Shown: in pieces, positions 18,554 to 35,687 of the stretch
Layout of the letters: the number at the start of each line of letters is the position of its first letter
Numbering within the stretch: the stretch's first letter is position 1
IMG/VR virus record: IMGVR_UViG_3300047444_000753
Span: 69,256-133,255 of that record
DNA length: 64,000 nucleotides
Reading direction: 5' to 3' (one strand)
Source: a virus
Taxonomy: Duplodnaviria > Heunggongvirae > Uroviricota > Caudoviricetes
Made by a program: the position numbers and the translations under genes
Notes under the pieces: generated by a model
Seen by the model: only the letters and a program-made list of their open reading frames with translations
Database searches by the model: none
Told to the model about the DNA's origin: nothing

Positions 18554-18656
18554 GCCCTTCAGCATATACCCTTTTACAATTCTTGCAAGGGTTGACACCC
18601 ACTAGATACACCTGTAAACTAGACATATACCAACGGCCACAACAAGGAGAAACACT

Positions 18657-19178
18657 ATGAACTCTGCATCACTCGGCAGCAAGAACCTCTTCACCAACTC
18701 AGCCAACAGCAAAGAACTCAACTTCCGGAACAAGACCAACGACCGGACCTCCGTCTCCTCCATCGAGATCCGCAAGCTGTACCCCACCGGGGGCTGCGAA
18801 AGCTTGGAGAGCATCTCCGTCAAGGAAGAAGACAACGTCGCCATGGCGATCGCGATCCTCGGTGTCGGACGGGTGACTGATGATGTCGAGAGCGAGGCGA
18901 AGATCCGTGCGGAAATGATCCTCGATGCGAACTACGGTCACACCGAGGACGGTGTCCTGAAGCAGGCCATCATCGCACTTCGCTCCATCCTGATCGCCCG
19001 CGAGATGGAGGCAGCTGCGGCCACCAAGGATCTGGACGACGCCTACGCCCTCTACAAGCTGGCCTACCCGAAGACGACCACGGAGTTTGAGAGCTTCAAG
19101 GTTCTCTCCATGAAGGACCACTGGCTCTCTGTCCTGCGTCGGATGCGCAAGGACCCCACGGTCCTCGGCACGTTGTAA
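18657..19178 (+). CDS. hypothetical protein
   Basis: TTGACA promoter 18592, AAGGAG RBS. Confidence 0.85.
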   Translation: MNSASLGSKNLFTNSANSKELNFRNKTNDRTSVSSIEIRKLYPTGGCESLESISVKEEDNVAMAIAILGVGRVTDDVESEAKIRAEMILDANYGHTEDGVLKQAIIALRSILIAREMEAAAATKDLDDAYALYKLAYPKTTTEFESFKVLSMKDHWLSVLRRMRKDPTVLGTL

Positions 19179-19213
19179 GAAATACAAACCCACAACAAGA
19201 AAAGGAATCCACC

Positions 19214-19594
19214 ATGAAGAACATCTACATCACAGGCGACCGCTCCATGGAGCCCTACCTCGCAGCAGGCGCAGTCAACGCCATCCTCAAGGATCTCGTG
19301 CGCCAGAACAACGGCGACCTCGCCATCGGCACAGGCAACTGTAACGGTGGCATCGAACGGGCCGTGCGCTACCTGATCGCGGAGGAGTTCATGAACCTCG
19401 CGCACTACTCCACCGACGAAGACGGCAAGCCGGACTTCGAGTCCACGTTCCGGGAGCTGGAGGACGTCATCGATCAGGTGGTCTTCATCCACACGGATCC
19501 GCTGAGCTCCCGTATCGGGCGAGCAGTCGCTGCCGTGTTCCCCGAGGACAAGGTCTCGATGCCCTTCCAAGAAGTGATGGCAGCTTCGTTGTAA
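19214..19594 (+). CDS. divergent SLOG/YspA-like protein
   Basis: IYITGDRS...GTGNCNGGIE echoes the ITGSR...SGACPSGAD motif of 44511. Confidence 0.45.
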   Translation: MKNIYITGDRSMEPYLAAGAVNAILKDLVRQNNGDLAIGTGNCNGGIERAVRYLIAEEFMNLAHYSTDEDGKPDFESTFRELEDVIDQVVFIHTDPLSSRIGRAVAAVFPEDKVSMPFQEVMAASL

Positions 19595-19606
19595 GAATTG
19601 CAAAAC

Positions 19607-19645
19607 AGAAAACCCCCGGCACCCTCTAAGGACCGGGGGTTCTCT
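19607..19645 (+). terminator. intrinsic terminator
   Basis: AACCCCCGG...CCGGGGGTT stem. Confidence 0.7.
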
Positions 19646-19744
19646 GTGTCTCGTACTCTCAACCACTAGACCCTTAAAGGGTATGCGAGGGTGGGTCTGG
19701 GGTCAAGTCCACATAACTGCATATTACTGTGGTACACTTAATGC

Positions 19745-20242
19745 ATGACACTTACTAAGACTTACCCATTCATGTCCAACCTGATCTTCCAGAATGTCAT
19801 AGTCCATGACGAATGCTGGGAGTGGCAGGGAGTCCAGCGCAAAGGCTATGGCCGGATCTCGGTCGATAGCAAGCAGTACTCCGTACATCGTGTGGTCTTC
19901 GCAGACATTCATGGCCCCATTCCTGAGGGGATGACCGTGCTACACACCTGCGACAATCCTCCCTGTTGTAGGCCTGAGCACCTCAGGCTAGCGACACAGG
20001 CAGAGAATATGGCTGACATGCTGGCCAAGGGTAGGCACGTACCGGGGACGGGAGGGACACCACCCCACGCATTCGGAGTAGGACACGCTAACGCGAAGAT
20101 GACGGACGAGATCGTTCTTGCGATCCGAGCGAGGTACGCAGAGGGTGCTATCACACAGAAGGAACTGGCCACCGAGTTCGCAGTGCACCAGAGCCAAGTC
20201 TCCCGGGCCATCAGTGGTAAGGGTTGGGGCCACCTCCTCTAA
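19745..20242 (+). CDS. HNH endonuclease with C-terminal HTH
   Basis: CWEWQG...GYG...VHRVVF...VLHTCDNPPCCRPEHL...ENMAD; C-terminal TQKELATEFAVHQSQVSRAI; leaderless after TGTGGTACACT. Confidence 0.9.
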   Translation: MTLTKTYPFMSNLIFQNVIVHDECWEWQGVQRKGYGRISVDSKQYSVHRVVFADIHGPIPEGMTVLHTCDNPPCCRPEHLRLATQAENMADMLAKGRHVPGTGGTPPHAFGVGHANAKMTDEIVLAIRARYAEGAITQKELATEFAVHQSQVSRAISGKGWGHLL

Positions 20243-20247
20243 CGCGA

Positions 20248-20628
20248 ATGCGGTACACCCTAATGCGGTTGCGGTCTTAGTGGATGCGGTACACCCTAAT
20301 GCGGTGCACATGGATGCGGTTACGGCTATTAAGGATGCGGTGCCTGCCATGCGGTACTAGTGCATGCGGTGCGGTATCCCGGATGCGGTTGACTAGGATG
20401 CGGTACTAGGGCATGCGGTGCGGTGTTCCGGATGCGGTTGCGGTCAGATAGCATGCGGTGCGGTTGTAGGCATGCGGTGGCCCTCCTTTTGCGGTTAGGG
20501 GCATGCGGTGCGGCTAAGTCGATGCGGTGGCCCTCCTTTGCGGATGCGGTGATGCGGTTGCCGTTTTTGGCATGCGGTGATGCGGTTGACTCGATGCGGT
20601 CGTAAATTGATGCGGTGCGGCATGCGGT
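20248..20628 (+). repeat. array of about 23 same-strand ATGCGGT heptamers
   Basis: Copies at 20248, 20263, 20284, 20299, 20314 ... 20610, 20622; spacing mostly 14-22 bp with variable spacers. Confidence 0.9.
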
Positions 20629-20813
20629 TGCAACTTTTGTAAGTAGGGGTGGTCAGGGGTGGTCAGAGCTCCTCTGTGGGAGAAACCCCCGGCGTGTTTC
20701 AGATGCCGAAAACGATTTCCACCTCAACAAAAACCAATTTTCGATACGTTAGTTGACATCTATGTATGTATAAGATATACTTGATACATACCCAACGAAA
20801 GGAATCAAAGACT

Positions 20814-20942
20814 ATGAAGAAATTTCTCGACTACCAGCTCAACCCGGTGCTCTTCGTCATCGTTTTCATCTACGTGATGACTGACAAGTTCGCCCGGTCG
20901 ATTTTCGTCAAGGATTACAAGCCCAAGCGCCTGTACTTCTAG
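20814..20942 (+). CDS. small membrane protein (42 aa)
   Basis: TTGACA-N17-TATACT (20753-20781), AAGGA RBS, one TM. Confidence 0.7.
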   Translation: MKKFLDYQLNPVLFVIVFIYVMTDKFARSIFVKDYKPKRLYF

Positions 20943-20962
20943 CACACCGACTGAAACTCACT

Positions 20963-21254
20963 AGCGCTATATAAGCGCTATAGAAACACACCAACACAAG
21001 CTCACCACCTCGGGGCGAAGCTCACCAGCTCGGCGGAGGTTCACCACCTTAGCGCTACATAAACACAATAGCGCTAGCGCTTCAGCGCTACACATACACG
21101 CATACGCACACAGGCACATCGCCACACCACCTCGGGAGAGGATCACCACCTCAAATCGTCTCACCACCTCAAGCGCTAGCGCTAACACATAGCGCTTTAG
21201 CGCATAGCGCTACGCGGAGGTTCACCAGCTCGGGAGGGCGAGACTCACCAGCAC
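20963..21254. repeat. alternating blocks of AGCGCT palindromes and CACCASCTC repeats
   Basis: 10 AGCGCT and 8 (T)CACCA(C/G)CTC-like copies in interleaved blocks; non-coding. Confidence 0.8.
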
Positions 21255-21449
21255 ATGGGTTTAGCCCCTTACAAAATTTGCAAGGGGTTAGGGGGGGGGG
21301 GGTGTTGGGTTTTCGATTCCGGGGGGCGGGACCTTCTGGCCGGGTGGGGTTCAGGCCGTCGCCCTACTTCCCACCCGTTTACAATTCTTGCAACGTCTCG
21401 CAAGAATCATAACCAGTGGCCCGGGGCCGTCGCTCCGGTTGATGACTTC

Positions 21450-21588
21450 AGTATTGCATATTCAATTGCACGTGTCAACATATCGCCCTGCCCAACATGC
21501 AGGGCGTTTAGCGACTCCCATAACTCTCCCCTATGGATCTGGAGATGTCAAGTCGCTGCAGGACTTGCGCATTGGTTTACATGCGTGT
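21450..21588. promoter_or_regulatory. divergent promoter pair
   Basis: Minus strand TTGACA(21478)-N17-AATACT; plus strand TTGCGC-N17-TATTGT upstream of 21629. Confidence 0.65.
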
Positions 21589-21628
21589 ATTGTAGAGATA
21601 TCAGCTCAACCAAACCAAGGAGCACACC

Positions 21629-21913
21629 ATGACTGTACAGGTCCGTTACACCGCGTCCGTCGTCAATTTCGACACTGCCGAAACTTTTACGGGCTGGGTT
21701 GATCCTAGCTGGAACCGCTGGGAACTGCGGAGCACGGCGGAAGATGTCCGTACGTTCGAATACGCGGATGAGGCGGAAGCGCTGGCCGCGATTGAATCGG
21801 AGATTGGCGCACCCGATAATTGGGACGGTGAGTCCTATTACGCGGCGGACGCGGCCATCAACTTGGAGTCCGGCGAACACTGGCTGTACGCGGCGCACGT
21901 GACCGAAAGCTAG
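21629..21913 (+). CDS. acidic early protein
   Basis: AAGGAG RBS; 19 D/E versus 4 R in 94 aa; followed by terminator. Confidence 0.85.
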   Translation: MTVQVRYTASVVNFDTAETFTGWVDPSWNRWELRSTAEDVRTFEYADEAEALAAIESEIGAPDNWDGESYYAADAAINLESGEHWLYAAHVTES

Positions 21914-21977
21914 GCCCCCGCGAAAGTACCCCGGCGCTGAGCGCGTCGGGGGCTTTTGCATTTTTTGCAACGGGGCT

Positions 21978-22048
21978 AAAAAAAAGACCCAGAGTGGGCC
22001 TTCCCCGGGACCCGTCTCAGGGCCCCTATCATGTTCGGCTTCCGCCTA
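21978..22048 (-). ncRNA. putative small RNA (family 1, copy A)
   Basis: Minus-strand TTGACA(22084)-N18-AATAAT, three hairpins, T8 tract; no ORF; homologous to 23221-23296. Confidence 0.5.
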
Positions 22049-22238
22049 TACTCAATTATTGCATACAAAATACACACGTGTCAACCCCTAAACCAGACTT
22101 GCGTATCAACATATACCCGTGTACAGTATAGGTATCAGCAACGGAGTAAGGGCCACGGGCCAGACTCAACCGGCGCTGACCAACACTTTACAGGTCCCAA
22201 CGCCTGACCGCTTATCCGCTAGCCCAAGGAGTCTTATA

Positions 22239-22499
22239 ATGTTTGCAAAGCAGATCCGCATCCGTCCGCTACACCTCCCCACCGCGTGGAGTGTCGTACT
22301 GTTGCTGCTGATCCTCCCGGCCCTGTACGTCGAGCTGACGGGAGATTTCCCGGGCCGCGTGTGGTTCTACGGGCAGGAGGAAGATAGCGAGCTGGCGGGC
22401 GTATTCCTCAACGCTCACAACTACATCTTTACAACTCTTGCAACCACGTGGGACGTCGTCGGACGGCTTGCGGGCAGCGTCAAAGAATTCTTTGCCTGA
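22239..22499 (+). CDS. membrane protein
   Basis: AAGGAG RBS; TM helix; start codon overlaps a TTATAA-N3-TTGCAA site. Confidence 0.7.
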   Translation: MFAKQIRIRPLHLPTAWSVVLLLLILPALYVELTGDFPGRVWFYGQEEDSELAGVFLNAHNYIFTTLATTWDVVGRLAGSVKEFFA

Positions 22500-22561
22500 C
22501 GGGTTGACATCCGTATACCTTATGCCTTAGACTAGTAGTACACCAACAAAGGAGAAACACC

Positions 22562-22888
22562 ATGGCAAATCTCACCGCTACCCCCAAAGACCTCACCTCG
22601 GCCATCGCGGCGCTGAACGGTAAGAGCGTCCGGAAGATCGGGAACAACACGGAGCTGCGCTTGGAAGTGACCCCCAAGGGCCGTAGCGTCGTGGCCACGC
22701 TGCACGGCAACAGGATTGTCCGCTATGAGGCTGACGGTGTCTACGTGAGCTGGGCAGGTTACACCACCAGCACCACCCGTGACCGGCTGAACCAGCTCTC
22801 CCCGGCCCGATTCAACATCGCCGGACGCCTCCCCCACATCGACGGCGAAGAGGTATTTAGCCTCGAATGGGTCAAGGTCACCAACTAA
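22562..22888 (+). CDS. conserved-type phage early protein
   Basis: LHGNRI...WAGYTTSTTRDRLN motif; own promoter, RBS and terminator. Confidence 0.85.
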   Translation: MANLTATPKDLTSAIAALNGKSVRKIGNNTELRLEVTPKGRSVVATLHGNRIVRYEADGVYVSWAGYTTSTTRDRLNQLSPARFNIAGRLPHIDGEEVFSLEWVKVTN

Positions 22889-22963
22889 CCGGGACGCCCG
22901 GGGTCTAACAAGCCCCGGGCTATCCGCCCTTACAATTCTTGCAATTCTTACAAAGGAGACATC

Positions 22964-23152
22964 ATGTCGGCACTAATCGTGAACCACTCACAGACTGTGG
23001 CGGAACGGCTCGAATACATCCGGGGCGAGATTGAGGCGGAACGGGTGAGCTACTGGGAGATTTCGGAGCTGCAGGGACTGGCGGCTTTCATCGACCCGGG
23101 CGACGTGCTGCTGCTGGAGTGGGCAGGAGTCCCGGAATTCCCGGAAGACTAG
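22964..23152 (+). CDS. small acidic protein
   Basis: AAGGAG RBS, downstream terminator hairpin. Confidence 0.8.
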   Translation: MSALIVNHSQTVAERLEYIRGEIEAERVSYWEISELQGLAAFIDPGDVLLLEWAGVPEFPED

Positions 23153-23220
23153 CCTAAACAAATATCCCCCGGCGCTACGGCGTCCGGGGGTATTTGCGTT
23201 GCAATTTTTGCAACGGGCCT

Positions 23221-23296
23221 AAAAAAAAAGGGTCAGACTCGGCCTACCCCCCGACCCCGCTGCAGGGCCGATATCTACGGGCTGCTTGCCCGTCTA
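23221..23296 (-). ncRNA. putative small RNA (family 1, copy B)
   Basis: Minus-strand TTGACA(23331)-N18-TAGAAT, hairpins, T9 tract; no ORF. Confidence 0.5.
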
Positions 23297-23421
23297 CTTC
23301 AATTCTAAGGCATAACGTATACAGATGTCAAGCCCAAAAGAAATAAAAGATTATCGGGTTTAGGGCTTGCGTAGGGGTTTACATGCATGTATAGTAGATA
23401 TTACCAACGAAGGAGAACATC

Positions 23422-23598
23422 ATGGGAATGACCCGAAAAACTCAGCAGGAAGGCGTTATCTACGTCACGCCTAACCGGGCAGTATTCGCATCGCCGGACG
23501 GTGAGGGCCGTGTCTGGTTTGACACGGTCAACGAAGCTAAGGGCGAAACGGGCCTGACAAAAGTTGTCTACTTGCTGGAAGCGCCGGAAGACTACTGA
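23422..23598 (+). CDS. hypothetical protein (58 aa)
   Basis: TTGCGT-N17-TATAGT promoter, AAGGAG RBS. Confidence 0.8.
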   Translation: MGMTRKTQQEGVIYVTPNRAVFASPDGEGRVWFDTVNEAKGETGLTKVVYLLEAPEDY

Positions 23599-23675
23599 GC
23601 AACCGGGGCCGGGTGGACATTCTGCCCGGTCCCGTGTATGCTAGAACTACCAACAAAGAACAAAGGATATGCAAA

Positions 23676-24308
23676 ATGGTCTTCCGTCTTGATAACACTC
23701 TCACCGAACCGCGCAACGTTGTGTACGCTGCTAAGCCTAACTCGGCGCGTATCCTCGACGTGTACCGTCAAGCGACGTTGCAGGAATTGCAGGATGGGCT
23801 TGATTGGTACCGTGACGCTCACGCTATCGCTGCTGCACTGGATCCGGCGCGGCCTCACGCTGCAGCGGGCGTACTGGCGGCGCTCTCGCCTATGCAGAGC
23901 TGGGGGCAGAATGTAAACCTTGCAGCGCGGGCCTACGCTGACGGCAGCGCCACGGGCACCCTGTTTCGTAACTGCGCCAAAGCTGACGCGATTATGGCCG
24001 GTGCTGAACCGCTCGACGTGTTGCGCGGGGATAAGGTTTGCAACTTTTACAAAGCTATTGCAGATCCCCACGACGGCGGCGCTGTAGTGATTGACCGCCA
24101 CGCGTTTGATATCGCGGTAGGCCGGATCACTAACGATAAGTCCCGGACGGCACTGGGCCGTAAGGGCGTCTATGACGCGTTCGCTAGGGCCTACGTACGG
24201 GCAGCTAAGGCCGTGTCTGTAGAGACTGGGCTGGACGTATCGCCCTGTCAGATGCAGGCGATAACGTGGACAGTCTGGCGGCGTCTCAAGGGCCTTGACG
24301 GACTGTAA
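23676..24308 (+). CDS. phage early protein, possibly HhH DNA-glycosylase-like fold
   Basis: GLDWY...AALSPMQSWGQN...KVCNFY...VVIDRHAF...AY..AA...PCQMQAITW. Confidence 0.55.
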   Translation: MVFRLDNTLTEPRNVVYAAKPNSARILDVYRQATLQELQDGLDWYRDAHAIAAALDPARPHAAAGVLAALSPMQSWGQNVNLAARAYADGSATGTLFRNCAKADAIMAGAEPLDVLRGDKVCNFYKAIADPHDGGAVVIDRHAFDIAVGRITNDKSRTALGRKGVYDAFARAYVRAAKAVSVETGLDVSPCQMQAITWTVWRRLKGLDGL

Positions 24309-24382
24309 GAATTGCAACGGGCCGGGGTAGACAAACTATCTCGGCCCGTGTATGCTTAGAGTACCAACAAAGGAGAAACACC

Positions 24383-24697
24383 ATGTGGATGAATGAATAT
24401 GAAATTGAAGACGCGCTGCGACTGACGGCCCGTTTTGAATTGCCCGTCGCACGTCGGGCCGCTGAAATTCTTTCGGAGCTGAAAGACTGGACCAATGATC
24501 ACTCGGACGGGTGGCCCTACTGGCAGAAACCTGCTAAGGCCGCTGACAAGCTCATGACGGCCCTGCAGTCTGCCATTGGCGCTAGCCGTCAAGGGGACAA
24601 CGTAGACATGACGGAGGCGCAACTCAAGGCCGCGCTGACGCCCGTCAAGTCATTCCTGACCCGTCACGGCGCTGACCACACGGAGGTAATCAAGTGA
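24383..24697 (+). CDS. hypothetical early protein
   Basis: Promoter plus AAGGAG; NDHSDGWPYWQKP motif. Confidence 0.85.
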   Translation: MWMNEYEIEDALRLTARFELPVARRAAEILSELKDWTNDHSDGWPYWQKPAKAADKLMTALQSAIGASRQGDNVDMTEAQLKAALTPVKSFLTRHGADHTEVIK

Positions 24698-24978
24698 ACA
24701 GCATTCCGGGGTTTGCATCGGCCCAACGGCAGTGGGAGAACATGGAGCCGGACTGGGCAGACGAGTGCATCTGTGAACCGCGCTATGAATGTCCCGACTG
24801 TGGATCCGATCACTACAAAGAATCGGATCTAGACACGCCCTGCACGTGGGAACACTGCGACGGACGCGGCGTTACAAAAATTGTAACCGTGGAACACGGT
24901 ACGCCGGTTGCAGGATGTCGGGAACACGGATGGTGCACCGGCTGCAGTAGCCGGAACTGTGAGGACTGCAACGGCTAA
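24694..24978 (+). CDS. Cys-rich protein
   Basis: Several CxxC pairs; GTGA overlap. Confidence 0.75.
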   Translation: MNSIPGFASAQRQWENMEPDWADECICEPRYECPDCGSDHYKESDLDTPCTWEHCDGRGVTKIVTVEHGTPVAGCREHGWCTGCSSRNCEDCNG

Positions 24979-25052
24979 AAGAATTCTGGCGGGGGACTAG
25001 ACATTAGATCCCCCGCCGTGTATGCTTAGAGTACCAACAAAGGAGATACACA

Positions 25053-25307
25053 ATGGCAAAGAATCAGCCCATGGTAGTAACCGTCAACGCCGACACGGCA
25101 CACCGGACGGTCACCGTCGTTATCGAGCACGCCGACTGGCAGAGCTTTACCCGGGCCGTCCAGCCCCGGGCAACCAAGGAATTCAAGCGCTGGGTATCTG
25201 AGAACATCATGTTTGGGAACCTGCTCCACACCCGGTCATCACTTGGTTGGCACGACGTGCGCAACGAGTCGGGCCGCTGCCTGTCGTTCATGACCTACAC
25301 GTACTAA
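25053..25307 (+). CDS. hypothetical early protein
   Basis: Promoter plus AAGGAG RBS. Confidence 0.85.
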   Translation: MAKNQPMVVTVNADTAHRTVTVVIEHADWQSFTRAVQPRATKEFKRWVSENIMFGNLLHTRSSLGWHDVRNESGRCLSFMTYTY

Positions 25308-25382
25308 CCGGGCGGGCCGGGGCCTACGGGTCCCGGCAGCACGTCTTACAATTCTTGCAATACCAACAAACAAGGAGTCACC

Positions 25383-25580
25383 ATGGCAGAGCTTCAGGCA
25401 TCCATTGAGGTCACTAGTTCCCGGTTCACTGATGCACGGCGGGTACGAATCGTAGTAGACAGTATCACGGCGGTTGGAGATGAGGCCAATGGACGTGGCT
25501 TTATCACCACTGCGGGTGGTCAGCATTTTACTGTCATGGAGTCCTATGACCAAATTTTGGCGAAGATAGCCGCCGCCTAA
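25383..25580 (+). CDS. hypothetical early protein
   Basis: AAGGAG RBS. Confidence 0.8.
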   Translation: MAELQASIEVTSSRFTDARRVRIVVDSITAVGDEANGRGFITTAGGQHFTVMESYDQILAKIAAA

Positions 25581-25660
25581 CCGACGCGGGCGGGCCTTGC
25601 AAAAGTTGCAAGAGCCCGCCTAGCCGGTGGGTTGACAAGCCTGTATCTTTATGCGAGAAT

Positions 25661-25782
25661 TGAAACATGAAGCGGATATCCCCGGGAGGGATAAGCAGGG
25701 AAACCAGAGCTGCCCTAAAACGGGGCGGGTTATTTTTGGGGTCCTCTGGTGACCCAGCTTCAATCGGTTGCTTCATACTTCA
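25661..25782. ncRNA. convergent pair of homologous short transcripts (family 2)
   Basis: Plus TTGACA(25632)-N17-GAGAAT and minus TTGACA(25811)-N17-TAAAAT, both followed by TGAAnn-ATGAAGC. Confidence 0.45.
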
Positions 25783-25898
25783 ATTTTACAGACAACATAC
25801 ACAGATGTCAAGCGAAAAGAAATATTGGTTTGGACTTGCGTGAGGCTGTACATGGGTGTATAGTAGAGGTATCAGCAAGGGACAACCGAGGAGTCAAA

Positions 25899-26231
25899 AT
25901 GACTGCATGGATCATCACCAAAGACAAGATCGAATCTGACGCCAAGGGCGTGACCGGCCCGGGTATGGCGACGGACAACGACGTCAAGCGCCTGCAGGCC
26001 GGTGAGGGCGTCCGTTTCCGGATGCTGGACGACGACGGCGAGATCTATTACTACGGGCGGCAGCTGGAGACGTCGGACTGCACTGGGGCCTATGAGGATG
26101 GGTACTACGGAGCCGAGTCGGAATTCGCCCCACTGGATAACTTCGGACGTCCCAACGCCGGGTGCACCGAGATCCAGTTTGACCGGGGCGCAAAGGACGC
26201 CAAGGGCAAAGTGATCTGGGAGTCTTTGTAA
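25899..26231 (+). CDS. conserved-type phage early protein
   Basis: FRMLDDDGEIYYYG...FAPLDNFGRPNAGCTEI motif; promoter and RBS. Confidence 0.85.
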   Translation: MTAWIITKDKIESDAKGVTGPGMATDNDVKRLQAGEGVRFRMLDDDGEIYYYGRQLETSDCTGAYEDGYYGAESEFAPLDNFGRPNAGCTEIQFDRGAKDAKGKVIWESL

Positions 26232-28103: not shown

Positions 28104-28271
28104 CCGCTACGCGCCTAGGGTTGACACTACAGCCCTAGGCGTGTATGCTAGTAACATACCAACGAACGAAGGACACACCATGAACATTACAGCTGGGGGG
28201 TTTGTATTCTTTGTAAAGACTACTGAGACACCTGAGACGAACACCAACACCACCGAACGAAGGAACACAAA

Positions 28272-28454
28272 ATGAGCACTCCGACATCACGCGCACGTCA
28301 CCGGGACAACGCAGCCAAGTTGGGGAAATTCCAGCTGGCCATGACCGAGGGCTTCCGGATGGTCAACGCGTGGATGGACACCACGTCGGGACAGCTGACA
28401 CTTATCGGAATTGTGGGCGCGGCGCTGCTGCTGGCCATGACTATCAAGCCATAG
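28272..28454 (+). CDS. small membrane protein
   Basis: AAGGA RBS, C-terminal TM. Confidence 0.7.
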   Translation: MSTPTSRARHRDNAAKLGKFQLAMTEGFRMVNAWMDTTSGQLTLIGIVGAALLLAMTIKP

Positions 28455-28646
28455 GGCTTGTGTCACCATGTATATGGTGATACACTAAGAGCATAAACCA
28501 AACATAGAGGACCGGACGGGTGAGAGAATCCCCGTCCGGTTCTTTCAATTGTGACGCGTTTCACTCCCTTTTGATGCTATACTATAGGAAATACAGCCGC
28601 CCCGACATCCGTTGGGTGTGGCTATTCTTGTTTAGGGGTGGACAGC

Positions 28647-29018
28647 ATGGATAAAGCGTTTGAGGGCTTCAGTTCCTTCATAACGGCTATCGGTCCAGCT
28701 GGGTACCCGACGTCGATTCTCGGCGGTGTACTGATGCTCTTCTTCTACTTGCGCAAGCAAGAAGCCGGGATGCGTACTGAGATTGTGGCGTCTTTGCAAC
28801 GTTTGCAAAAGGACAAGGAAGCGCTGCAGGCGAGGATTGATGCACTGCAGCTGAGGATTGACACGCTGCAGAAGGAACTGGACTCCCGGGACGATGACAT
28901 TGATGCACTACGCATGCAACGCAGGGAGCTAGAAGACAAAGCGTATAATGAATCTAGGCGTGCTGACTCCGCGTTGGAGCAGGTACGGAAACTGCAACGG
29001 GCAAAAGAATCGGACTGA
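28647..29018 (+). CDS. membrane protein with coiled coil
   Basis: N-terminal TM plus heptad repeats; extended -10 (TGCTATACT) upstream. Confidence 0.75.
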   Translation: MDKAFEGFSSFITAIGPAGYPTSILGGVLMLFFYLRKQEAGMRTEIVASLQRLQKDKEALQARIDALQLRIDTLQKELDSRDDDIDALRMQRRELEDKAYNESRRADSALEQVRKLQRAKESD

Positions 29019-29019
29019 C

Positions 29020-29346
29020 ATGGGACTACACAGTGATCTAGAAGCGTTGGGGGCGGCTCTGCTGGTCCGTAGAACGAAGGTTCTATATGCTGCAGTCGGC
29101 CTACTGTTGTTCGGAACACTGGGCATGATCGTACAGGCAACGGAGAGCTCTAGCGCAGTCGGGGTCGTTGCTCCAGCTCTGTCGGATGCTTGCAAAGATT
29201 ACAAATTCTATGTCGGACACGTCGAGGCCTGTGGAGCTGCAGCACAGATCACGTCAGATCCGTCCACACCTCCGAGCCCGTCGCCGACATCGGACACCAA
29301 TGTCATCGCCGACGTGGCCCCCATAACCACTACCGTAAACCGCTAG
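29020..29346 (+). CDS. membrane protein
   Basis: TM helix, two Cys, Pro/Ser/Thr tail. Confidence 0.7.
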   Translation: MGLHSDLEALGAALLVRRTKVLYAAVGLLLFGTLGMIVQATESSSAVGVVAPALSDACKDYKFYVGHVEACGAAAQITSDPSTPPSPSPTSDTNVIADVAPITTTVNR

Positions 29347-29353
29347 GAACATC

Positions 29354-29758
29354 ATGACCATGACCATGGACACCACTGCACTACTGAACATTGTGACGGC
29401 AGCTGTCGTCGTCGCCTCACCACTGCTGACATCCGTTTTCACGCATACTGGGATGTCTTCCCGGACGAAGAACACCATTGCAATGGTTGTAAGTCTTGTA
29501 ATCGCCGTAGTGTACGAAGTATTGACCGGGGGCATCACAGACTGGACCAACATCCTCATTGCTTTCCCCGTCGTGTACGGGCTGCAGCAAGCTGTCTATA
29601 ACACGCTGCTGAAGGCTCTGGCGACGAGTGTTGAGGCGACGGTGGGTGTAGCGCCGAAGGCGGACGCAGGGACGGTGCAGGCGGTCACTACGCAGGCGTC
29701 GGACGGCTCCGAGGTAGTCGTGGCAGCTCCCGTCGAGGAGACACCGGCCATGGGCTAG
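29354..29758 (+). CDS. holin-like membrane protein
   Basis: Three TM segments with PLLTSVF...SSRTKNTIAMVVSLVIAV pattern typical of actinophage holins. Confidence 0.55.
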   Translation: MTMTMDTTALLNIVTAAVVVASPLLTSVFTHTGMSSRTKNTIAMVVSLVIAVVYEVLTGGITDWTNILIAFPVVYGLQQAVYNTLLKALATSVEATVGVAPKADAGTVQAVTTQASDGSEVVVAAPVEETPAMG

Positions 29759-29889
29759 TCGTCAGGAATTCAGGGCGTTAGACGGGATCCTACGGGGTCC
29801 CGTTTTTCGTTGGTTGACACGGGGGTTGACGGCGCGGTATGATTGATGCAGGCGCTCTATAGGCGCAACCAACTGATAGAGGAGACAAC

Positions 29890-30438
29890 ATGTGGATCTT
29901 TACCACTGAAGGATTTATTAGCGCGGTGCAGGACAGCACGGATGATGAGAAATTGGTTATCCGAGCCCGTGACCGGAAGTCTCTTGAGAGCATGCTGCAG
30001 ACTATCGAGCTTGCTGGGGAGGCTATCAACCGGGACGCCGAGGAAGGTGTCGAGCCCGTGGTGTTCGGCCCGTACAAAATTGAGACGGGCAAGGGCACAG
30101 ACTACAGGTGGCGCGTGTCCGGGATTGATCGGGGGACGTTCGCCCTGTTCATGCAGTTCGAAATCATGAATTTCCTGCAGTACACCAATTACAAAAACGC
30201 CCTCACGGAGAGTCGAGGCAAGGTCTACCATGACGCAGCTATGCGCGTGTGGGTGGACATGCTGGCCGTTGACGACGGGGTAAAGATTCCCGGGCGTCAG
30301 TGGGACTTGTCCGGCGCAGATTGGGACGAGGATGAGCCCTCATGGGAGGAGATCCGTGCCATGGAGCTGGAAGACGGCGCAGGGCCTGAGACGGACGAAG
30401 AGTTCGCCGAGCTGATGTCCGAGGCTCCCAATGCTTAG
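29890..30438 (+). CDS. conserved-type phage protein
   Basis: MWIFTTEGFISAV...LVIRAR...DYRWR...YTNYK motif; promoter and GAGGAG RBS. Confidence 0.85.
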   Translation: MWIFTTEGFISAVQDSTDDEKLVIRARDRKSLESMLQTIELAGEAINRDAEEGVEPVVFGPYKIETGKGTDYRWRVSGIDRGTFALFMQFEIMNFLQYTNYKNALTESRGKVYHDAAMRVWVDMLAVDDGVKIPGRQWDLSGADWDEDEPSWEEIRAMELEDGAGPETDEEFAELMSEAPNA

Positions 30439-30601
30439 GGATGTCCGCTGGTTTGTAATTTTTGCAACCGTCCTGATGGTGGGCTCACTGGTGATGGCGC
30501 TGCTGGCCGGAACGACGGTGGCGCTGCAGCTGCTGGCTATCTACGCTGCAGTAGTCGCCGTGTTCCTGCTGCTGGCCGAGGTGCTGGTCCGGCTCAAGTA
30601 A
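30431..30601 (+). CDS. small membrane protein (2 TM)
   Basis: Hydrophobic 56 aa overlapping previous stop. Confidence 0.65.
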   Translation: MLRDVRWFVIFATVLMVGSLVMALLAGTTVALQLLAIYAAVVAVFLLLAEVLVRLK

Positions 30602-30669
30602 CGGGTGTGTCCCGGCCTCACAAGGGCCGGGGCAGCCGGCTTGACAAGTGTGTATGGTGTGGGTAAGCT

Positions 30670-30740
30670 TGAAGCATGAAGCCCACGGGAGCAGGGTCAC
30701 CGGAGCTGCCCGAAAATAAACGGGGGGTGTGAGGGCATGA
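30670..30740 (+). ncRNA. third copy of family-2 short transcript
   Basis: TTGACA(30641)-N17-TAAGCT-TGAAGC-ATGAAGC...AGCAGGGTCACCGGAGCTGCCC; ends at bidirectional terminator near 30740-30765. Confidence 0.45.
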
Positions 30741-30769
30741 AAAAGCCCCGCCGTAGCGGGGCCTTGGGG

Positions 30770-31063
30770 CTAGAAGCCCTTGATGCAGATTGGGCCGATA
30801 CCCTGAGCAACGGATGTCGGGTCCGTCAGCGTCCGTCCGCAGATGAGGCAGACACCCGTCCGGCGTCCGTATTCGGCTGCTTGCTCTTTGGTCATCCGAG
30901 TCTCGGGACGAAGGTTGAAGATTGCGCCCTTGTCATATTCGAACTTGCCCGTGTTGGTGTCGAGCTTCATGGCGTACAGGTTGCCCGATACCTTAGCGGC
31001 CTGAACCTTGAAGGCTCCAGCGTTGCAAAGGTAGAAACCGGGGGTGACGTTGATCTTGGCCAT
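30770..31063 (-). CDS. DUF6011-like zinc-binding protein
   Basis: CLICGRTLTDPTSVAQGIGPIC; AAGGAG RBS; own promoter. Confidence 0.85.
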   Translation of the reverse strand: MAKINVTPGFYLCNAGAFKVQAAKVSGNLYAMKLDTNTGKFEYDKGAIFNLRPETRMTKEQAAEYGRRTGVCLICGRTLTDPTSVAQGIGPICIKGF

Positions 31064-31178
31064 TTTGACTCCTTGGTTGTTTCTTGCTGATGTATCAATT
31101 ATTGCATGCAAGATAGACAGCTGTCAAGCACTGGGCAAAAGAAAATCCCCGCCCTATTGGACGGGGACTCTCGGGGGT

Positions 31179-31427
31179 CTAGAAGTGGATAGCGATGAGG
31201 TTGTGGGGGAGGTAGTTGTTATAGGACGGGGAGAAGATTTCAACCGCGCCATGCTCGGGGGAGATAACGGAGAGGGTGTTGCCCTTGGGGTCGAGGGTGA
31301 CGCGAGGTTCGCCCTTGAAGTGGACGTGGGAGGTTTCGACGTAGATTTCGTCAGCTTCCATGAACTCGAAGATGGCCGGGAGGGACTTGCCAACGGAGAT
31401 GATCTGGTCACGGTTCAGGGTAGTCAT
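31179..31427 (-). CDS. hypothetical early protein
   Basis: Cassette promoter, AAGGA RBS, terminator. Confidence 0.8.
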   Translation of the reverse strand: MTTLNRDQIISVGKSLPAIFEFMEADEIYVETSHVHFKGEPRVTLDPKGNTLSVISPEHGAVEIFSPSYNNYLPHNLIAIHF

Positions 31428-31545
31428 TGTCTGTCCTTTGGTTGTTTCCTGCTGATGTATCTAGTCTAAGACCTGGGATACACACTTGTCAACCCCGGGG
31501 GCAAAAGAAATCCCCCGGCCATGGTGACCGGGGGAATCTTGGGGG

Positions 31546-32241
31546 CTAACCCGCTAGTGTAGCGGTGCAATACTTACCGGAGAGGGTGCACGGTACTTGG
31601 TAGGCGGCGTACAGGTTCCCTTGAATCTTTAGGTCATTCGGGGTGCAGCGGATGACAGTGGTAGAGGCGTAGACACTAGCATCACAGGATGTGATGACTC
31701 CCCCGGTGTAATGCACCACTACGGAGATGAGCGGGAGAGGCTGCGTAACGGGCCGGGGCCGGGACGGGATAACTATTCCGGGGCCACCGGCCATGTTGCA
31801 GAGTCCGGGGGCCTCATGGCCTGTGCACTTGTGGGCGACGGGCGCAGGTTCCGCGTGAGGTGGGACGCGGAAAGTCTGCCCGGAGGCGGATGTCTGGCCC
31901 TTGATGACGGGCGCAGGCTTGACGGCAGCTGTAGGGGCAACGGGTGCAGGCGCTGGGGCTGCTGCAGGAACGACGGGCGCGGGGGCCGTGATGGTGTCAG
32001 CCGGGGGCGTTGCAACTTTTGCAACGGGCTTGGCTGCAGGCTTGAGGGTGTGCTTGACGGGTGTCTTGTGTGTTGGGGCCTTGACTACAGCCGGGGGTGT
32101 GGCCACGGGAGTGGCGAGGCTCTGGGAGATGTAGGGCACGTCGGACGGTGGGACGGGCGCAGCCTGTGGCGTCGAGGTGCAGGCGCTCATAGTGAGGGCT
32201 GCAGCGAGGGCAACGGGGGCGAGAGCTTTGGTGAGGTTCAT
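31546..32241 (-). CDS. lipoprotein with Pro/Ala-rich linker and Cys-containing C-terminal domain
   Basis: MNLTKALAPVALAAALTMSAC lipobox; own promoter. Confidence 0.8.
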   Translation of the reverse strand: MNLTKALAPVALAAALTMSACTSTPQAAPVPPSDVPYISQSLATPVATPPAVVKAPTHKTPVKHTLKPAAKPVAKVATPPADTITAPAPVVPAAAPAPAPVAPTAAVKPAPVIKGQTSASGQTFRVPPHAEPAPVAHKCTGHEAPGLCNMAGGPGIVIPSRPRPVTQPLPLISVVVHYTGGVITSCDASVYASTTVIRCTPNDLKIQGNLYAAYQVPCTLSGKYCTATLAG

Positions 32242-32366
32242 GGCGACATCCTTAATTGGTTTCTGGTATATGTCAAGTGTACCGCTATCATGGACGGCTG
32301 TCAACAGGTGTGTAGGTTGCAAAAAAAAAATAGACCCCGCCTAGTGGCGGGGCCTATCTCTTGGGG

Positions 32367-32753
32367 CTAGGCGTACTGTACTGCAGTCTCCCCGACGCCG
32401 ATGGTGTACACGGCGCGTTCCCCGCGTTCCTGAGCAAAGAACAGGGCTGCTGATACGGAAGTGAAGGCGTCCGAGGCGTCGAGGATCACGCGGCCATCCT
32501 CAATCCACGTTCCGATGTAGGAGTCTGAGGCAAGAACGGACATGCGCCGGATGTAGGACTCGGCGAACTCGGGGGTGAAATCATCCACAGGGACGGAGGT
32601 TTCGGGGACACGGGCACCAGTGATGTCGGTAGCGCCGCCCACGAGGGTGACCGGGGACGTTTCAAGAGTGAGCGTCTTGGGGTTCATGGTTGCGCCGCCG
32701 TCGTTGAGCGTGGCAGAGATGAGGGTCTGGGCTGCTGCTGCGAAATCAGTCAT
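32367..32753 (-). CDS. conserved-type phage early protein
   Basis: YIGTWIEDGRVILDAS...AQERGERAVY; cassette promoter. Confidence 0.8.
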   Translation of the reverse strand: MTDFAAAAQTLISATLNDGGATMNPKTLTLETSPVTLVGGATDITGARVPETSVPVDDFTPEFAESYIRRMSVLASDSYIGTWIEDGRVILDASDAFTSVSAALFFAQERGERAVYTIGVGETAVQYA

Positions 32754-32876
32754 GGCATGTTCCTTTTGTTGGTAGTTCCTGCTGATGTATCAATCATCTC
32801 ATTAATAGATACACTTGTCAAGTAGTCGAGCATAACGGCTAGATTCTCGGCCCGTGTGAGATACACGGGGGCGGGG

Positions 32877-33161
32877 TCACTTTGCATTTTTTGCAAGTCG
32901 GCGCTCAAGCTCGGCGCGGAACAGCTGCCAGTCGTTGGCGTAACGGGGGTCATTTTCATCCTTCATGGCGCGGTAAACCATCTCACGACGGGCGCGGGCT
33001 CGGTTGTCCACAAGATCCAAGATGGTCCACCGGATAGCGACGATAATTACGAACAGGGCAACGACTGCGAAACCAACCAACAGGGCAATGGCTCCAGCTT
33101 CCGAGTGCACGTGGTTTGCATTGTTTGCAATGATGATCGGGAGGATGTTGGTGGGGTTCAT
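32877..33161 (-). CDS. membrane protein
   Basis: AAGGAG RBS; central TM. Confidence 0.75.
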   Translation of the reverse strand: MNPTNILPIIIANNANHVHSEAGAIALLVGFAVVALFVIIVAIRWTILDLVDNRARARREMVYRAMKDENDPRYANDWQLFRAELERRLAKNAK

Positions 33162-33289
33162 GGCGGGCTCCTTAGTGGAATCTTGCTGATGTATCAAGAC
33201 TACAGGTGGGATACACAGATGTCAACACGGGGGCACAAGAAAAGACCCGCCGTGGTGACGGGTCGATTCTTGGGGGTGGGGCGAGGTGG

Positions 33290-33694
33290 TCAGCCTTGAC
33301 GGAAGATGTGCCACTCGTTGGGGTGGGCGACGGACTGCAGCGTGAATTCATTCATGGGAAGGTGGGCGGGCTCATGGTCCAGCGTGGAGACGTACACGGC
33401 GTGCGCAACGACTGCAGGGGCGAAGTTGTAAGTATTGAAAGTTGTCCAAGCCTCACGGGCCGTGACCGGGGACGTGATGTTACAGGTGAGGTTTCCCATG
33501 GTGTGGCAATTCCAGCACGGCTCATCCTCTTCACAACGGGGTGCAGGGGTGGGTGTAGGGGACGGCGTGGAGTCGGGGGCGGAGATTACTGCAGGGACGT
33601 ACGTGGGGGCGGCTGACGGAGCTGCAGGGGCGCAGCCGGTGAGGGCTAGGGCTGCAGCTACGGTGACGGGGGCGAGGATGTGGGCGAGGCGCAT
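33290..33694 (-). CDS. lipoprotein
   Basis: Lipobox LTGC, Pro-rich linker, CEEDEPCWNCHTMGNLTC. Confidence 0.8.
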   Translation of the reverse strand: MRLAHILAPVTVAAALALTGCAPAAPSAAPTYVPAVISAPDSTPSPTPTPAPRCEEDEPCWNCHTMGNLTCNITSPVTAREAWTTFNTYNFAPAVVAHAVYVSTLDHEPAHLPMNEFTLQSVAHPNEWHIFRQG

Positions 33695-33702
33695 AGGGGC
33701 TC

Positions 33703-34266
33703 CTAGTGAGTCGGGGGGTTCAGTTTGTCGAGCATGGAATTTAGGAAAGACTGTACAGCCTTGACGGCGGGCTCAAAGAAGTAAGGGTCGGCCTTGATGT
33801 CGTACGTCGAGGCCTTGACTATTTGGCGGCGTTCCTTGACCGGGGTGCAGGCGTTGCAAATTTTGCAAGAGTCGCCGGGGTCGGTGGACGTCTCCAGAAT
33901 CTGGCCCGTGTTGGTGCAGGTGAGGTTCCAAACAATTTTGGGGACGGGCCACTCGTGAGGGACCATCTCGCCGTGTTCATAGCCCAGACGGCGGGCAATT
34001 TTGAGCCACTTGTCATCATGGCCGTTGACACGGTGGGGGCGAACGGGGCCGCGTAGGGCGTGGGCTAGTTCATGCTTCATGATCTGGGACACTTGGTAGG
34101 GGGTGTAGGCCTGCATAAATTCCACAGACAGCTCTATGGTTCCCTTGGAGTAGTCGCAACGGCCTGCCCATTCAAGGGAATTGGCGAGGCGTATCCTGTA
34201 CAGGCAGTGAGGGGCTTTACGCGCCCGGATCTGGTTCGCTAGGCGAAGTGTAGCGTCGGGGTTCAT
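33703..34266 (-). CDS. SprT-like metalloprotease domain protein
   Basis: WAGRCDY...IELS...MKHELAHA...GHDDKW; C-terminal Cys cluster. Confidence 0.8.
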   Translation of the reverse strand: MNPDATLRLANQIRARKAPHCLYRIRLANSLEWAGRCDYSKGTIELSVEFMQAYTPYQVSQIMKHELAHALRGPVRPHRVNGHDDKWLKIARRLGYEHGEMVPHEWPVPKIVWNLTCTNTGQILETSTDPGDSCKICNACTPVKERRQIVKASTYDIKADPYFFEPAVKAVQSFLNSMLDKLNPPTH

Positions 34267-34274
34267 GGAAGTCC

Positions 34275-34406
34275 TTAGCGCCGGGTGGAGAGGTTGGCGT
34301 TGAATTGTGTGAGCATGGCGTTGGTACTGGCCATGATGTCGGCGAGCTGGTCAGCGTCGGCCTGCGAAGTGGTGGCGGGCTGGGGCTTAGGCCTGCGTCC
34401 GAACAT
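34275..34406 (-). CDS. small hypothetical protein (43 aa)
   Basis: AGGAG RBS; fills the gap between neighbours. Confidence 0.6.
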   Translation of the reverse strand: MFGRRPKPQPATTSQADADQLADIMASTNAMLTQFNANLSTRR

Positions 34407-34429
34407 TTTGGGCTCCTAGGTGGTGAGGA

Positions 34430-34585
34430 CTAGCGACGGGCGGCTTTACGGGCCTGCTTTGCGTGCCAGCGGCGGGCGCTCCATGCTGACTCGTCAACGA
34501 GGATGTAGAGCTTGACCGCTCCGAAGACGAAGGCAAGGGCGAGGATAGCTCCGATGATGTAGGCTACGAAGTTCATGGCGGTCAT
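34430..34585 (-). CDS. small membrane protein
   Basis: Cassette promoter, AAGGAG RBS, TM. Confidence 0.75.
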   Translation of the reverse strand: MTAMNFVAYIIGAILALAFVFGAVKLYILVDESAWSARRWHAKQARKAARR

Positions 34586-34698
34586 TTTGTGCTCCTTGGG
34601 TGGTTCCTGCTGATGTATCAAGTATTGCACGTGGGATACACAGATGTCAACACGCAAAAAATCCCCACCCTGTTGGGGGTGGGGACTCTTGGCGAGGG

Positions 34699-35109
34699 CT
34701 AGTGGTGACGGCGGGGGGTGATGTACTTGAAGATGATCCACGTCTTCCGCGTGTCTACAGACTTGACGATCACGTAACCGCGCTTCTTGTGTGGGGCTTT
34801 GTGCACAGTGGTGACGTAGGCGAGTACGTGAGTATCGTCAAACAACGGCGGGTCTTGAAGGGCGTCAAAACTGTCCCATGCTTCCGCGAGGCGGGGGTCA
34901 TATGACTGGTGGGTTCCGCTCGTGTCGGTGTCGTACCCGGGCCACCATTCACAAGACCCGGCCCAGATGTAGCCGCGTGGATCCTTGGCCGTCGAACAAT
35001 GGGTGGTTGCTTTTTTCGGGGCTGCTTCCGCAGACGGTGCCACGGCGAGGCCTGAAAAAATAAGACCGGCTGCCAGAACGACGGGTGTAATTACGGGCGT
35101 GAATTTCAA
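34699..35109 (-). CDS. secreted protein, paralogous to 33290-33694
   Basis: Signal peptide ending AEA; shared EAWxxF...YVxT...SV...WxIF domain. Confidence 0.7.
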   Translation of the reverse strand: MKFTPVITPVVLAAGLIFSGLAVAPSAEAAPKKATTHCSTAKDPRGYIWAGSCEWWPGYDTDTSGTHQSYDPRLAEAWDSFDALQDPPLFDDTHVLAYVTTVHKAPHKKRGYVIVKSVDTRKTWIIFKYITPRRHH

Positions 35110-35139
35110 GGCATGTCCTTTTTGAGGGGGTTGTTCTTA

Positions 35140-35430
35140 CACCTCTAGAGTCTCACACAAGATACACACGTGTCAACTCGTGGCAGTGGGCAAAGCTTGC
35201 ACGTGTGCAGGGTGTTGAGTAGGCAGGCAGGGCAGGGGCTAGCTGGGCCTGTATAGGGGCAGGCAGGGGCGCACGCGCACACACGTACGTGTGCACGCGT
35301 ACACGCGAGGCAGGCAGGCAGAGCACACACAAGAGATCTCACACACAAGCAAGTCACTCACTCCTCACTCACTCACTCAAGTCTTGTGTGTCTCACTCCC
35401 AAGACAAGACGCAAGAGACAAAGACAACGA
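35140..35430. repeat. low-complexity non-coding tract
   Basis: GCAGG repeats, 39-nt perfect purine/pyrimidine alternation (35269-35307), CACTCA and CAAGA repeats. Confidence 0.75.
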
Positions 35431-35687
35431 CGTCGCTAGGCCGGTGGGCCGTGTGGGGCGTTGCAAAAATTGCAAGCGGGCTGCGACACGCGACGGCTGC
35501 AGCATGCGGTTGCGGTACTTTCATTTTGCACCCCGGGGAGGCCCCCCATACTACGCGGTACCCGCTCACCAAATTTTGGAAAATTTCTACTTAGCATACA
35601 CCCATGTCAACCCCTTCTCCCACCTGCCTAAACTTTTCCCGACACGCCCTATTGACACTTGACTTGACCACCCTGTACCTTTGAGCT

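Follow-up and report, generated by a model that had tools for sequence, protein, structure and literature searches.

What are some 35 copies of a single 15-letter symmetric word doing in one block of the genome of a large uncultured soil phage? The word, TTRYAA-N3-TTRYAA (for example, TTGCAAAAGTTGCAA), occurs in a virus of the Caudoviricetes, in the 64,000-nucleotide stretch at positions 69,256 to 133,255 of IMG/VR record IMGVR_UViG_3300047444_000753. This whole stretch is called the window, and its coordinates are used unless genome coordinates are named. A preliminary description, made from the letters alone, had reported that a 17-kb segment of the window is coated with these palindromes, even inside genes, and had proposed a cis-acting system that marks early or first-injected DNA. 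Here, the word is found to be under strong purifying selection in a segment homologous to the long terminal repeat of cultured phages, where it may serve one phage protein as an array of docking sites.

A pattern search of the window returned 25 perfect matches, compared to a mean of 0.00 in 100 dinucleotide-preserving shuffles of the window. With up to one mismatch allowed, 38 matches were found and 0.40 were expected. All 25 perfect and all 12 one-mismatch coordinates of the preliminary description were recovered, along with one more one-mismatch site at 17491, and its judgment that the array lies far above chance held. The whole 158,613-bp IMG/VR contig contains 27 perfect sites, 24 of which fall at genome positions 87829-104730 (window 18574-35475). 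The word is therefore not equally frequent genome-wide; the density in this 16.9-kb segment, 11% of the genome, is approximately 60-fold above that of the rest. As had been stated, no site was found between 35.5 and 64 kb of the window, even with one mismatch, and the last one ends at 35475. The segment carries 24 perfect and nine one-mismatch sites.

Single TTRYAA hexamers are less confined, with 60 of the 121 in the genome falling in the segment. Among hexamer pairs no more than 40 bp apart, 27 of 33 are at exactly 9 bp and, therefore, the unit is a pair or a triplet and not a single hexamer. Two triplets (22930/22939 and 29478/29487) consist of three hexamers with a 9-bp period. Across the block there is about one site per 560-800 bp, and site clusters are more evenly spaced than random ones (coefficient of variation 0.56-0.72 vs 0.96; P = 0.007-0.09 per genome). 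The form of the word was analyzed with 65 sites pooled from three genomes and oriented by gene direction. The 130 half-sites were TTGCAA (81), TTGTAA (29), TTACAA (19), and TTATAA (1), and each hexamer accepts one transition. The spacer is W-W-N, with A/T-rich first and second positions and no fixed T..A. No position outside the 15-mer was informative in the pooled sites, and the flanks are not conserved.

Approximately 10 of the 24 perfect sites in the segment (~40%) lie inside genes as called in this analysis, near the one-half estimated previously. The codons used there are indeed unfavored ones: TTG makes up 6% of leucine codons in the genome, CAA 12% of glutamine codons, and TTT 17% of phenylalanine codons. 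Conservation was examined with two IMG/VR relatives, G002 and G003, whose portal proteins are 84-90% identical to that of the genome holding the window (G0). G002 has 23 perfect sites and G003 has 18; every one is in the syntenic block, and no perfect site was found elsewhere on their contigs. The block is mosaic among relatives, with DNA identity of 65-80%. At the G0 sites in alignable DNA of G002 and G003, half-site letters were identical in 228 of 240 cases (95%), spacer letters in 42 of 60 (70%), and flanking letters in 3958 of 5462 (72.5%); the difference between hexamers and flanks has p = 8e-19. Third codon positions at identical amino acids, the check that the preliminary description had called for, were conserved in 32/32 cases within half-sites vs 460/831 (55%) in the remainder of those genes (p = 1e-8). 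Among amino-acid replacements within sites, several (for example, ACA/GCA and GTA/GCA) are exactly the R/Y changes that the motif allows. The triplets are real as well, and both are retained in the relatives, which carry further triplets of their own. Finally, the peptide encoded across site 24038 is not shared by distant DUF7178 homologs from phages without the motif. Since half-sites are conserved, synonymous third positions are fixed, rare codons are used, and the DUF7178 peptide is unshared, the DNA word itself is under strong purifying selection, as had been suspected.

The individual sites are as follows, in window coordinates and with no strand assigned (RBS, ribosome-binding site; ORF, open reading frame).

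10571-10585: perfect outlier outside the segment; not aligned in relatives.
18574-18588: perfect; intergenic, with the -35 TTGACA of the gene 18657 promoter 3 nt to its 3' side.
19173-19187: one mismatch; left hexamer TTGTAA includes the TAA stop of gene 18657-19178.
19589-19603: perfect; TTGTAA includes the TAA stop of gene 19214-19594, followed by a terminator hairpin; retained in G002.
20628-20642: perfect; closes the ATGCGGT repeat array.
21269-21283: perfect; intergenic, with CCCC/GGGG on either side.
21379-21393: perfect; intergenic; TTACAATTCTTGCAA, one of four identical copies.
21956-21970: one mismatch; between convergent terminators.
22234-22248: perfect; overlaps the ATG of gene 22239-22499 and has the sole TTATAA half-site.
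22429-22443: perfect; within gene 22239-22499.
22930-22953: triplet; flanked by a terminator hairpin and the gene 22964 RBS; retained as a triplet in G003.
23199-23213: perfect; between convergent terminators; imperfect copy in G003.
24038-24052: perfect; within the DUF7178 gene, codons GTT TGC AAC TTT TAC AAA; retained in G002 and G003, where the spacer alone differs, synonymously.
24303-24317: one mismatch; includes the TAA stop of gene 23676-24308, 10 nt 5' of a -35.
24872-24886: perfect; full palindrome TTACAAAAATTGTAA; not retained in G002.
25346-25360: perfect; flanked by a terminator hairpin and the gene 25383 leader/RBS.
25597-25611: perfect; in a GC-hairpin loop, 20 nt 5' of the -35 at 25632; retained in G003.
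26226-26240: one mismatch; includes the TAA stop of gene 25899-26231, 11 nt 5' of a -35.
26581-26595: perfect; begins immediately past the TGA stop of gene 26308-26580 and precedes a hairpin; retained in G003.
26906-26920: perfect; codons 7-11 of gene 26887-27210; retained in G003, where an amino-acid change (ACA to GCA) still fits the motif.
27961-27975: one mismatch.
28202-28216: one mismatch.
28794-28808: perfect; within coiled-coil ORF 28638-29018, TTG CAA CGT TTG CAA, all rare codons; retained in G002 with another spacer.
29190-29204: perfect; retained in G002, there as part of a triplet.
29478-29501: triplet; within gene 29354-29758, whose Mimi homolog lies outside the Mimi terminal repeat (see below); retained in G002 and G003.
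30453-30467: perfect; over or just after a start codon; retained in G002 and G003.
32010-32024: perfect; within minus-strand ORF 31546-32241.
32882-32896: one mismatch; 3' end of minus-strand gene 32877-33161.
33116-33130: one mismatch.
33426-33440: one mismatch.
33854-33868: perfect; within SprT-like minus-strand gene 33703-34266; retained in G003.
35461-35475: perfect, the last site; in a 578-bp divergent gap, the probable right boundary of the terminal repeat; a triplet in G002.

Certain contexts recur. Stop codons are contained in or abutted by the sites at 19173, 19589, 24303, 26226, and 26581, and start codons have a site over or just after them at 22234, 26906, and 30453. The gap from hairpin to RBS holds the 22930 triplet and 25346, convergent terminators enclose 21956 and 23199, and mid-gene positions are taken by 24038, 28794, the 29478 triplet, 32010, and 33854.

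What kind of DNA is marked in this way became apparent from the closest cultured relatives, the ~194-kb Arthrobacter globiformis phages Mimi, Racecar, Atuin, and Talia1610 (portal 53% identical). In Mimi, a related word occurs approximately 29 times between 842 and 19765, and each copy has a counterpart at +172,660, as far as the record runs. Therefore, Mimi has a direct terminal repeat (DTR) of 19,868 bp. The corresponding part of the window is as follows.

17806-35650 (boundaries approximate): DTR-homologous segment, ~45 small genes.

Gene 17855-18457 (plus strand), which opens the repeat, has its homolog in Mimi gene 1 (49% identity). Mimi gene 44, from the right edge of the Mimi repeat, has its match in the minus-strand block (30.7-35.1 kb). 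The physical left end of Mimi falls at about window 17806 in the alignment. On these three grounds, window ~17.8-35.6 kb is the homolog of the 19.9-kb Mimi DTR, in agreement with the earlier idea that a special early or terminal part of the genome is marked. The array starts ~0.8 kb inside the left boundary and ends in the right boundary gap. The segment is laid out as a plus-strand block (17.9-30.6 kb) and the minus-strand block, and it has 30 sigma70-like promoters compared to 8.5 expected (19 kb). Most of its ORFs encode 50-200 amino acids, almost all without a Pfam family. It is present once, in a collapsed metagenomic assembly. Metagenome contigs from the public runs cover the segment in fragmented, low-depth pieces. 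The protein of gene 17855-18457 belongs to no family; a scan of viral contigs with it gave no match, and a protein-atlas search gave a sub-threshold lead to small terminase subunits alone.

The word could act as DNA or as RNA, and as part of a promoter or independently of one. In the 65 pooled sites, the arms showed 21 A.C and 21 G.U combinations, and compensatory pairs were not enriched. The lack of covariation indicates that arm pairing, in RNA or in a cruciform, is not selected, and an arm-paired hairpin or cruciform was ruled out. A stand-alone promoter was also ruled out, since there is no -10 at a fixed distance and no conserved position outside the 15-mer. Only four of 37 sites (18574, 24303, 25597, and 26226) lie within 30 bp 5' of a -35 box, which rules out an obligatory upstream promoter element for this genome. 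Taken together, the absence of covariation and of flank information, the few -35 neighbors, the kept triplets, and the even spacing point to a duplex site for a protein. The word would thus be described as a self-contained site for a dimeric or two-domain protein, placed regardless of coding status. Partition sites were considered too, and the window contains no parS within three mismatches. Consensus parS sequences are present within the terminal repeats of the cultured phages: TGTTTCACGTGAAACA in Mimi (19714-19733) and at least TTCACGTGAAACA in Atuin (~16200, minus strand). Mimi gene 5, in the terminal repeat, encodes a protein with a ParB-like nuclease domain.

Is the word the same in the wider family? 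Five more IMG/VR genomes (G005-G009) were reached with a tandem helix-turn-helix (HTH) protein, described below, as a marker. G005 (153 kb) has the same symmetric word, with 11 perfect sites and ~28 sites with up to one mismatch in the corresponding 20 kb. Five further perfect sites are scattered far outside the block, and at least nine sites lie between a hairpin and an RBS. Mimi, Atuin, and G006-G009 have an asymmetric word, TAG-TTACAAAA, plus the following clade-specific bases.

Mimi: NTTGAATA.
Atuin: NTTTCGGTA.
G006 and G009: STTTCT(T)A.
G007 and G008: AACGCNTA.

The asymmetric word immediately follows the stop codon in nearly all of the small genes and flips with gene direction; in Mimi, 17 of 26 plus-strand sites begin 0-3 nt after a stop codon. 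It belongs to a cassette with the order stop codon, motif, GC hairpin with the -35 TTGACA in its loop, -10, ACCAAC leader, and RBS. The motif comes first in the Mimi-type phages and the hairpin comes first in G005. As read from these words, TTACAA is the common core and the other half changes by clade, which would make the symmetric form one derived state. Mimi and Atuin, which share the same A. globiformis host strain, have different variable halves (TTGAATA vs TTTCGGTA). Therefore, the reader of the word is probably a co-evolving phage protein rather than a host factor.

Beyond these genomes, no TTRYAA word was found in the Microbacterium relatives A3Wally and Zooman (first 17 kb) or at two distant DUF7178 loci. 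A3Wally and Zooman have another repeated intergenic word, approximately TTTAGTG-N4-GATTCTTGCGTG or ACTCTTGCGTG, in seven to eight copies. No description of the word was found in the literature on it or on these Arthrobacter phages, including their terminal repeats, and the public Mimi and Atuin records annotate coding sequences only and not the word. In kind, the array is comparable to the repeated binding-site arrays known from actinobacteriophages. What distinguishes it is its confinement to a long terminal repeat, the override of codon choice, and an evolutionary series that leads from an asymmetric, oriented word to a symmetric dyad.

How, then, would such an array work? The reading we favor, at about even chances, is an operator- or stoperator-like array through which one phage protein controls the early genes of the DTR together. 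The TTRYAA-WWN-TTRYAA words would be duplex docking sites for a sequence-specific, phage-encoded protein that recognizes a pair of hexamers spaced by 9 bp, whether it binds as a dimer or as a single chain with two DNA-binding domains. Once bound, this one protein would most likely hold all the small, strongly promoted early genes of the block under common control. The likeliest role would be shut-off of early "host-takeover" transcription, with RNA polymerase blocked both within genes and at the junctions between them. Protein binding, phage encoding, and a repressive effect are each what we infer from the arrangement of the sites and its evolution. The preliminary description had offered four possible functions, and the stoperator-like one fits best because the words of the kin are asymmetric and co-oriented with transcription, whereas a decoy for a host regulator does not agree with the different halves in Mimi and Atuin.

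Cluster A mycobacteriophages provide the nearest model. Their stoperators are many copies of a short asymmetric word that lie in short intergenic spaces and are oriented to match the direction of transcription (PMC9283540). The reader, such as L5 gp71 or the TipsytheTRex repressor, is a monomer with two DNA-binding domains that stops both initiation and elongation (PMC9283540). The present array likewise has more than 20 copies of one short word, in short intergenic spaces and at promoters; the word of Mimi, Atuin, and G006-G009 is asymmetric with an orientation that follows transcription; and a one-chain reader with two DNA-binding domains has the architecture of the tandem-HTH candidate. Unlike the stoperators, the word here is a symmetric 6-3-6 dyad, whose palindromic form gives no orientation, and the array is confined to the terminal-repeat early block instead of being genome-wide, with ~40% of its sites intragenic. 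Moreover, the kin were isolated as plaque-forming phages and an immunity role is not indicated, though lysogeny genes were not searched for. The candidate has no homology to L5 gp71-type repressors, and the architecture is analogous only. The array is, therefore, not a member of the Cluster A stoperator family. The long-terminal-repeat block of SPO1 is similar in having 12-20 kb of small, strongly promoted early genes, but no repeated dyad word is part of the SPO1 description and the phage lineages are unrelated. Cluster O mycobacteriophages have ~30 copies of a 17-bp dyad repeat with a 3-bp variable center. In contrast to the present array, these are spread over the genome at gene junctions and differ in sequence.

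The candidate reader is encoded downstream of the segment.

48519-49049 (plus strand): tandem-HTH protein, 176 amino acids, weak Pfam matches to HTH_23 and HTH_11.

Its AlphaFold model (mean predicted local distance difference test score, pLDDT, 81) has two four-helix domains (residues 15-65 and 98-164), each ending in an HTH, joined by a disordered linker. No Protein Data Bank (PDB) chain matched the protein by sequence at E <= 1, and no PDB fold match was significant. Orthologs are present in all kin, among them gp72 of Mimi and gp66 of Atuin, and that of G005 is 54% identical. The putative recognition helices, SRSIV(Q/N)IW and SRRAIAQRL, are common to all four symmetric-motif genomes, including G005. 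In the asymmetric-motif genomes, the first helix is of an SR(T) type that varies by clade and the second is nearly constant. This pattern is suggestive in that it would fit one constant and one variable half-site. Still, we consider it doubtful that this protein is the reader of the sites. When the genome was scanned in six frames for protein families, an XRE HTH (genome 51228-51380) and a WhiB-like gene (genome 42409-42585) emerged as other DNA-binding candidates, along with a weak HTH in ORF 19745-20242; these scans found no HU, ribbon-helix-helix (RHH), or sigma factor gene.

Several observations weigh against the array being a transcriptional switch read by this protein. The match between helix type and motif type is confounded by phylogeny among the ten genomes compared. 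The tandem-HTH gene sits among packaging and head genes, and a 29%-identical homolog is present in Microbacterium phages without the motif; the protein may thus be a packaging protein. No DNA-binding domain was detected by Pfam among 20 proteins of the segment itself. A physical duplication of the segment at both ends of this genome is predicted from homology and synteny with Mimi. Furthermore, the motif of the kin lies 10-14 bp 5' of the -35 and not over the core promoter, which fits a roadblock and not the classical position of an operator. Lastly, many sites are exactly at stop codons or in the first codons of genes, where a signal at the RNA level would explain them as well.

In that explanation, which we regard as unlikely, an RNA-binding protein or nuclease would read the word in early transcripts to process polycistronic mRNA, control translation of the next gene, or tune termination at adjacent hairpins. 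The stop-codon positions of the Mimi plus-strand sites agree with this, as does the co-orientation of all sites there with transcription. In G0 and its close kin, too, sites that overlap or touch a stop codon, or that fall within the first 4-22 nt of a gene, are numerous, many sites flank GC hairpins, and the G005 sites between hairpin and RBS would be well placed. However, there is no RNA-hairpin signature, since sense-strand A.C mismatches are as common as G.U wobbles, and the order of motif and hairpin flips between clades. The Mimi-type motif is 5' of the promoter and, hence, is missing from the mRNA of the downstream gene. Dyad symmetry and triplets are typical of duplex-DNA sites, and adjacency to stop codons can also come from genome compaction.

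Another possible explanation is that the array is an identity mark of the terminal repeat, read by a packaging-associated binder such as the tandem-HTH protein next to the portal. It would then serve to define, pair, duplicate, or protect the 17-20-kb repeat while DNA is packaged, forms concatemers, or enters the host. The array covers the same stretch as the DTR homolog, is indifferent to coding status, and is evenly spaced, and the candidate binder is encoded among head and packaging genes, next to the terminase genes in the Microbacterium kin. On the other hand, the motif of the kin flips with gene direction inside the repeat, which ties it to transcription units and not to genome ends, and G005 has its five further perfect sites far outside the block. 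We also know of no precedent for such a mark, and we hold the explanation to be distinctly unlikely. Its specific form, in which the array is no transcription switch and a packaging-associated protein with two HTHs coats the 17-20-kb repeat via the ~35 evenly spaced sites, strikes us as quite improbable. If true, this coating would let the phage recognize, pair, or duplicate the repeat as concatemers are processed, or would shield the DNA that is first to enter. It would also address how phages define very long terminal repeats, a question to which we know of no answer.

The segment resembles the early regions of T4-type phages, in which promoter-early stem-loop (PeSL) cassettes mediate shuffling (Arbiol et al. 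2010, PMC2839356). In both, small non-essential early genes are parted by stereotyped cassettes of a strong sigma70-type promoter and a stem-loop, and the block is mosaic. The word might accordingly be a boundary element of mobile PeSL-like promoter/terminator cassettes, with no reader of its own. The mosaic block, the stereotyped cassette of the kin (stop, motif, hairpin, -10, leader, RBS), and the known shuffling by PeSL cassettes (PMC2839356) speak for it. Yet the four sites that adjoin a promoter here and the ~40% in genes do not suit a cassette boundary, in-gene sites are synonymously conserved, and copied cassettes would share flanks, whereas the flanks here are uninformative. Unlike in PeSL cassettes, the TTRYAA dyad is a separate module without kept flanks that is mostly off promoters and also conserved in coding sequence. 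We judge a mere boundary function to be improbable.

The least successful explanation, and a highly improbable one, is that the words are sites or decoys for a host regulator, either PerR/Fur-like or another actinobacterial factor: the 6-3-6 geometry resembles the 7-1-7 box of the Fur family and TTTGCAAA-type palindromes are bound by some actinobacterial XRE regulators, but a host factor would not be expected to differ between Mimi and Atuin on one strain, and there are four different variable halves among the kin. The comparison to a PerR box in the preliminary description has to be dropped, because a PerR/Fur box (7-1-7, TTATAAT-N-ATTATAA) is ruled out by the single TTATAA among 130 half-sites and by a W-W-N spacer that lacks a T-N-A core.

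Other features were seen in and around the segment. An array of ~35 irregular ATGCGGT(G/T) repeats extends over ~400 bp (20234-20640) and ends at site 20628; one more ATGCGGTTGCGGT occurs at 35503-35515, just past the last site at 35461. The ATGCGGT array may function as an origin, as a signal for packaging, or as a further set of binding sites. A second repeat array (20960-21260), with units TCACCACCTC/TCACCAGCTC and TAGCGCTA, lies in a 686-bp gap without a called gene. The 578-bp divergent gap, which corresponds to the right boundary of the Mimi terminal repeat, contains low-complexity tracts (GGCAGGCAGG, CACACACG, and CTCACTCACTCA) at 35221-35440. The minus-strand genes at 30.7-35.1 kb share a promoter cassette, TTGACA-N2-TGTGTATC..., with an extended -10 and the leader TGATACATCAGCAAGAAACAACCAAGGAG, and no TTRYAA site was found in the intergenic gaps that carry it. 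Promoters at 23.6-28.2 kb, as well as those of Mimi, Atuin, and G006-G009, present the -35 TTGACA in a GC-hairpin loop; the stems differ in sequence per cassette with pairing kept, and the 3' arm ends at the -10. This hairpin, together with TAGTCTTT, may double as the terminator of the upstream gene. Finally, ORF 19745-20242 (plus strand, 165 amino acids) in the early block looks by eye like an HNH homing endonuclease, with weak C-terminal matches to HTH_3 and Sigma70_r4 and no NCBIfam match.

In large phages with long terminal repeats, the repeat is where the host-takeover genes reside, and nothing was found in the literature on actinobacterial phages on how a terminal-repeat early block is switched off or handled as a unit. 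The selection seen here indicates that, in the early genes of a phage, a constraint on DNA can prevail over the choice of codons and even of amino acids. The array is a sharply defined cis-element with strong evolutionary evidence of function, diverged versions in cultured and freely available phages (Mimi and Atuin), and a short list of candidate readers. With cultured kin that carry diverged words and so few candidates, the question of what reads the word, and to what end, is directly testable.

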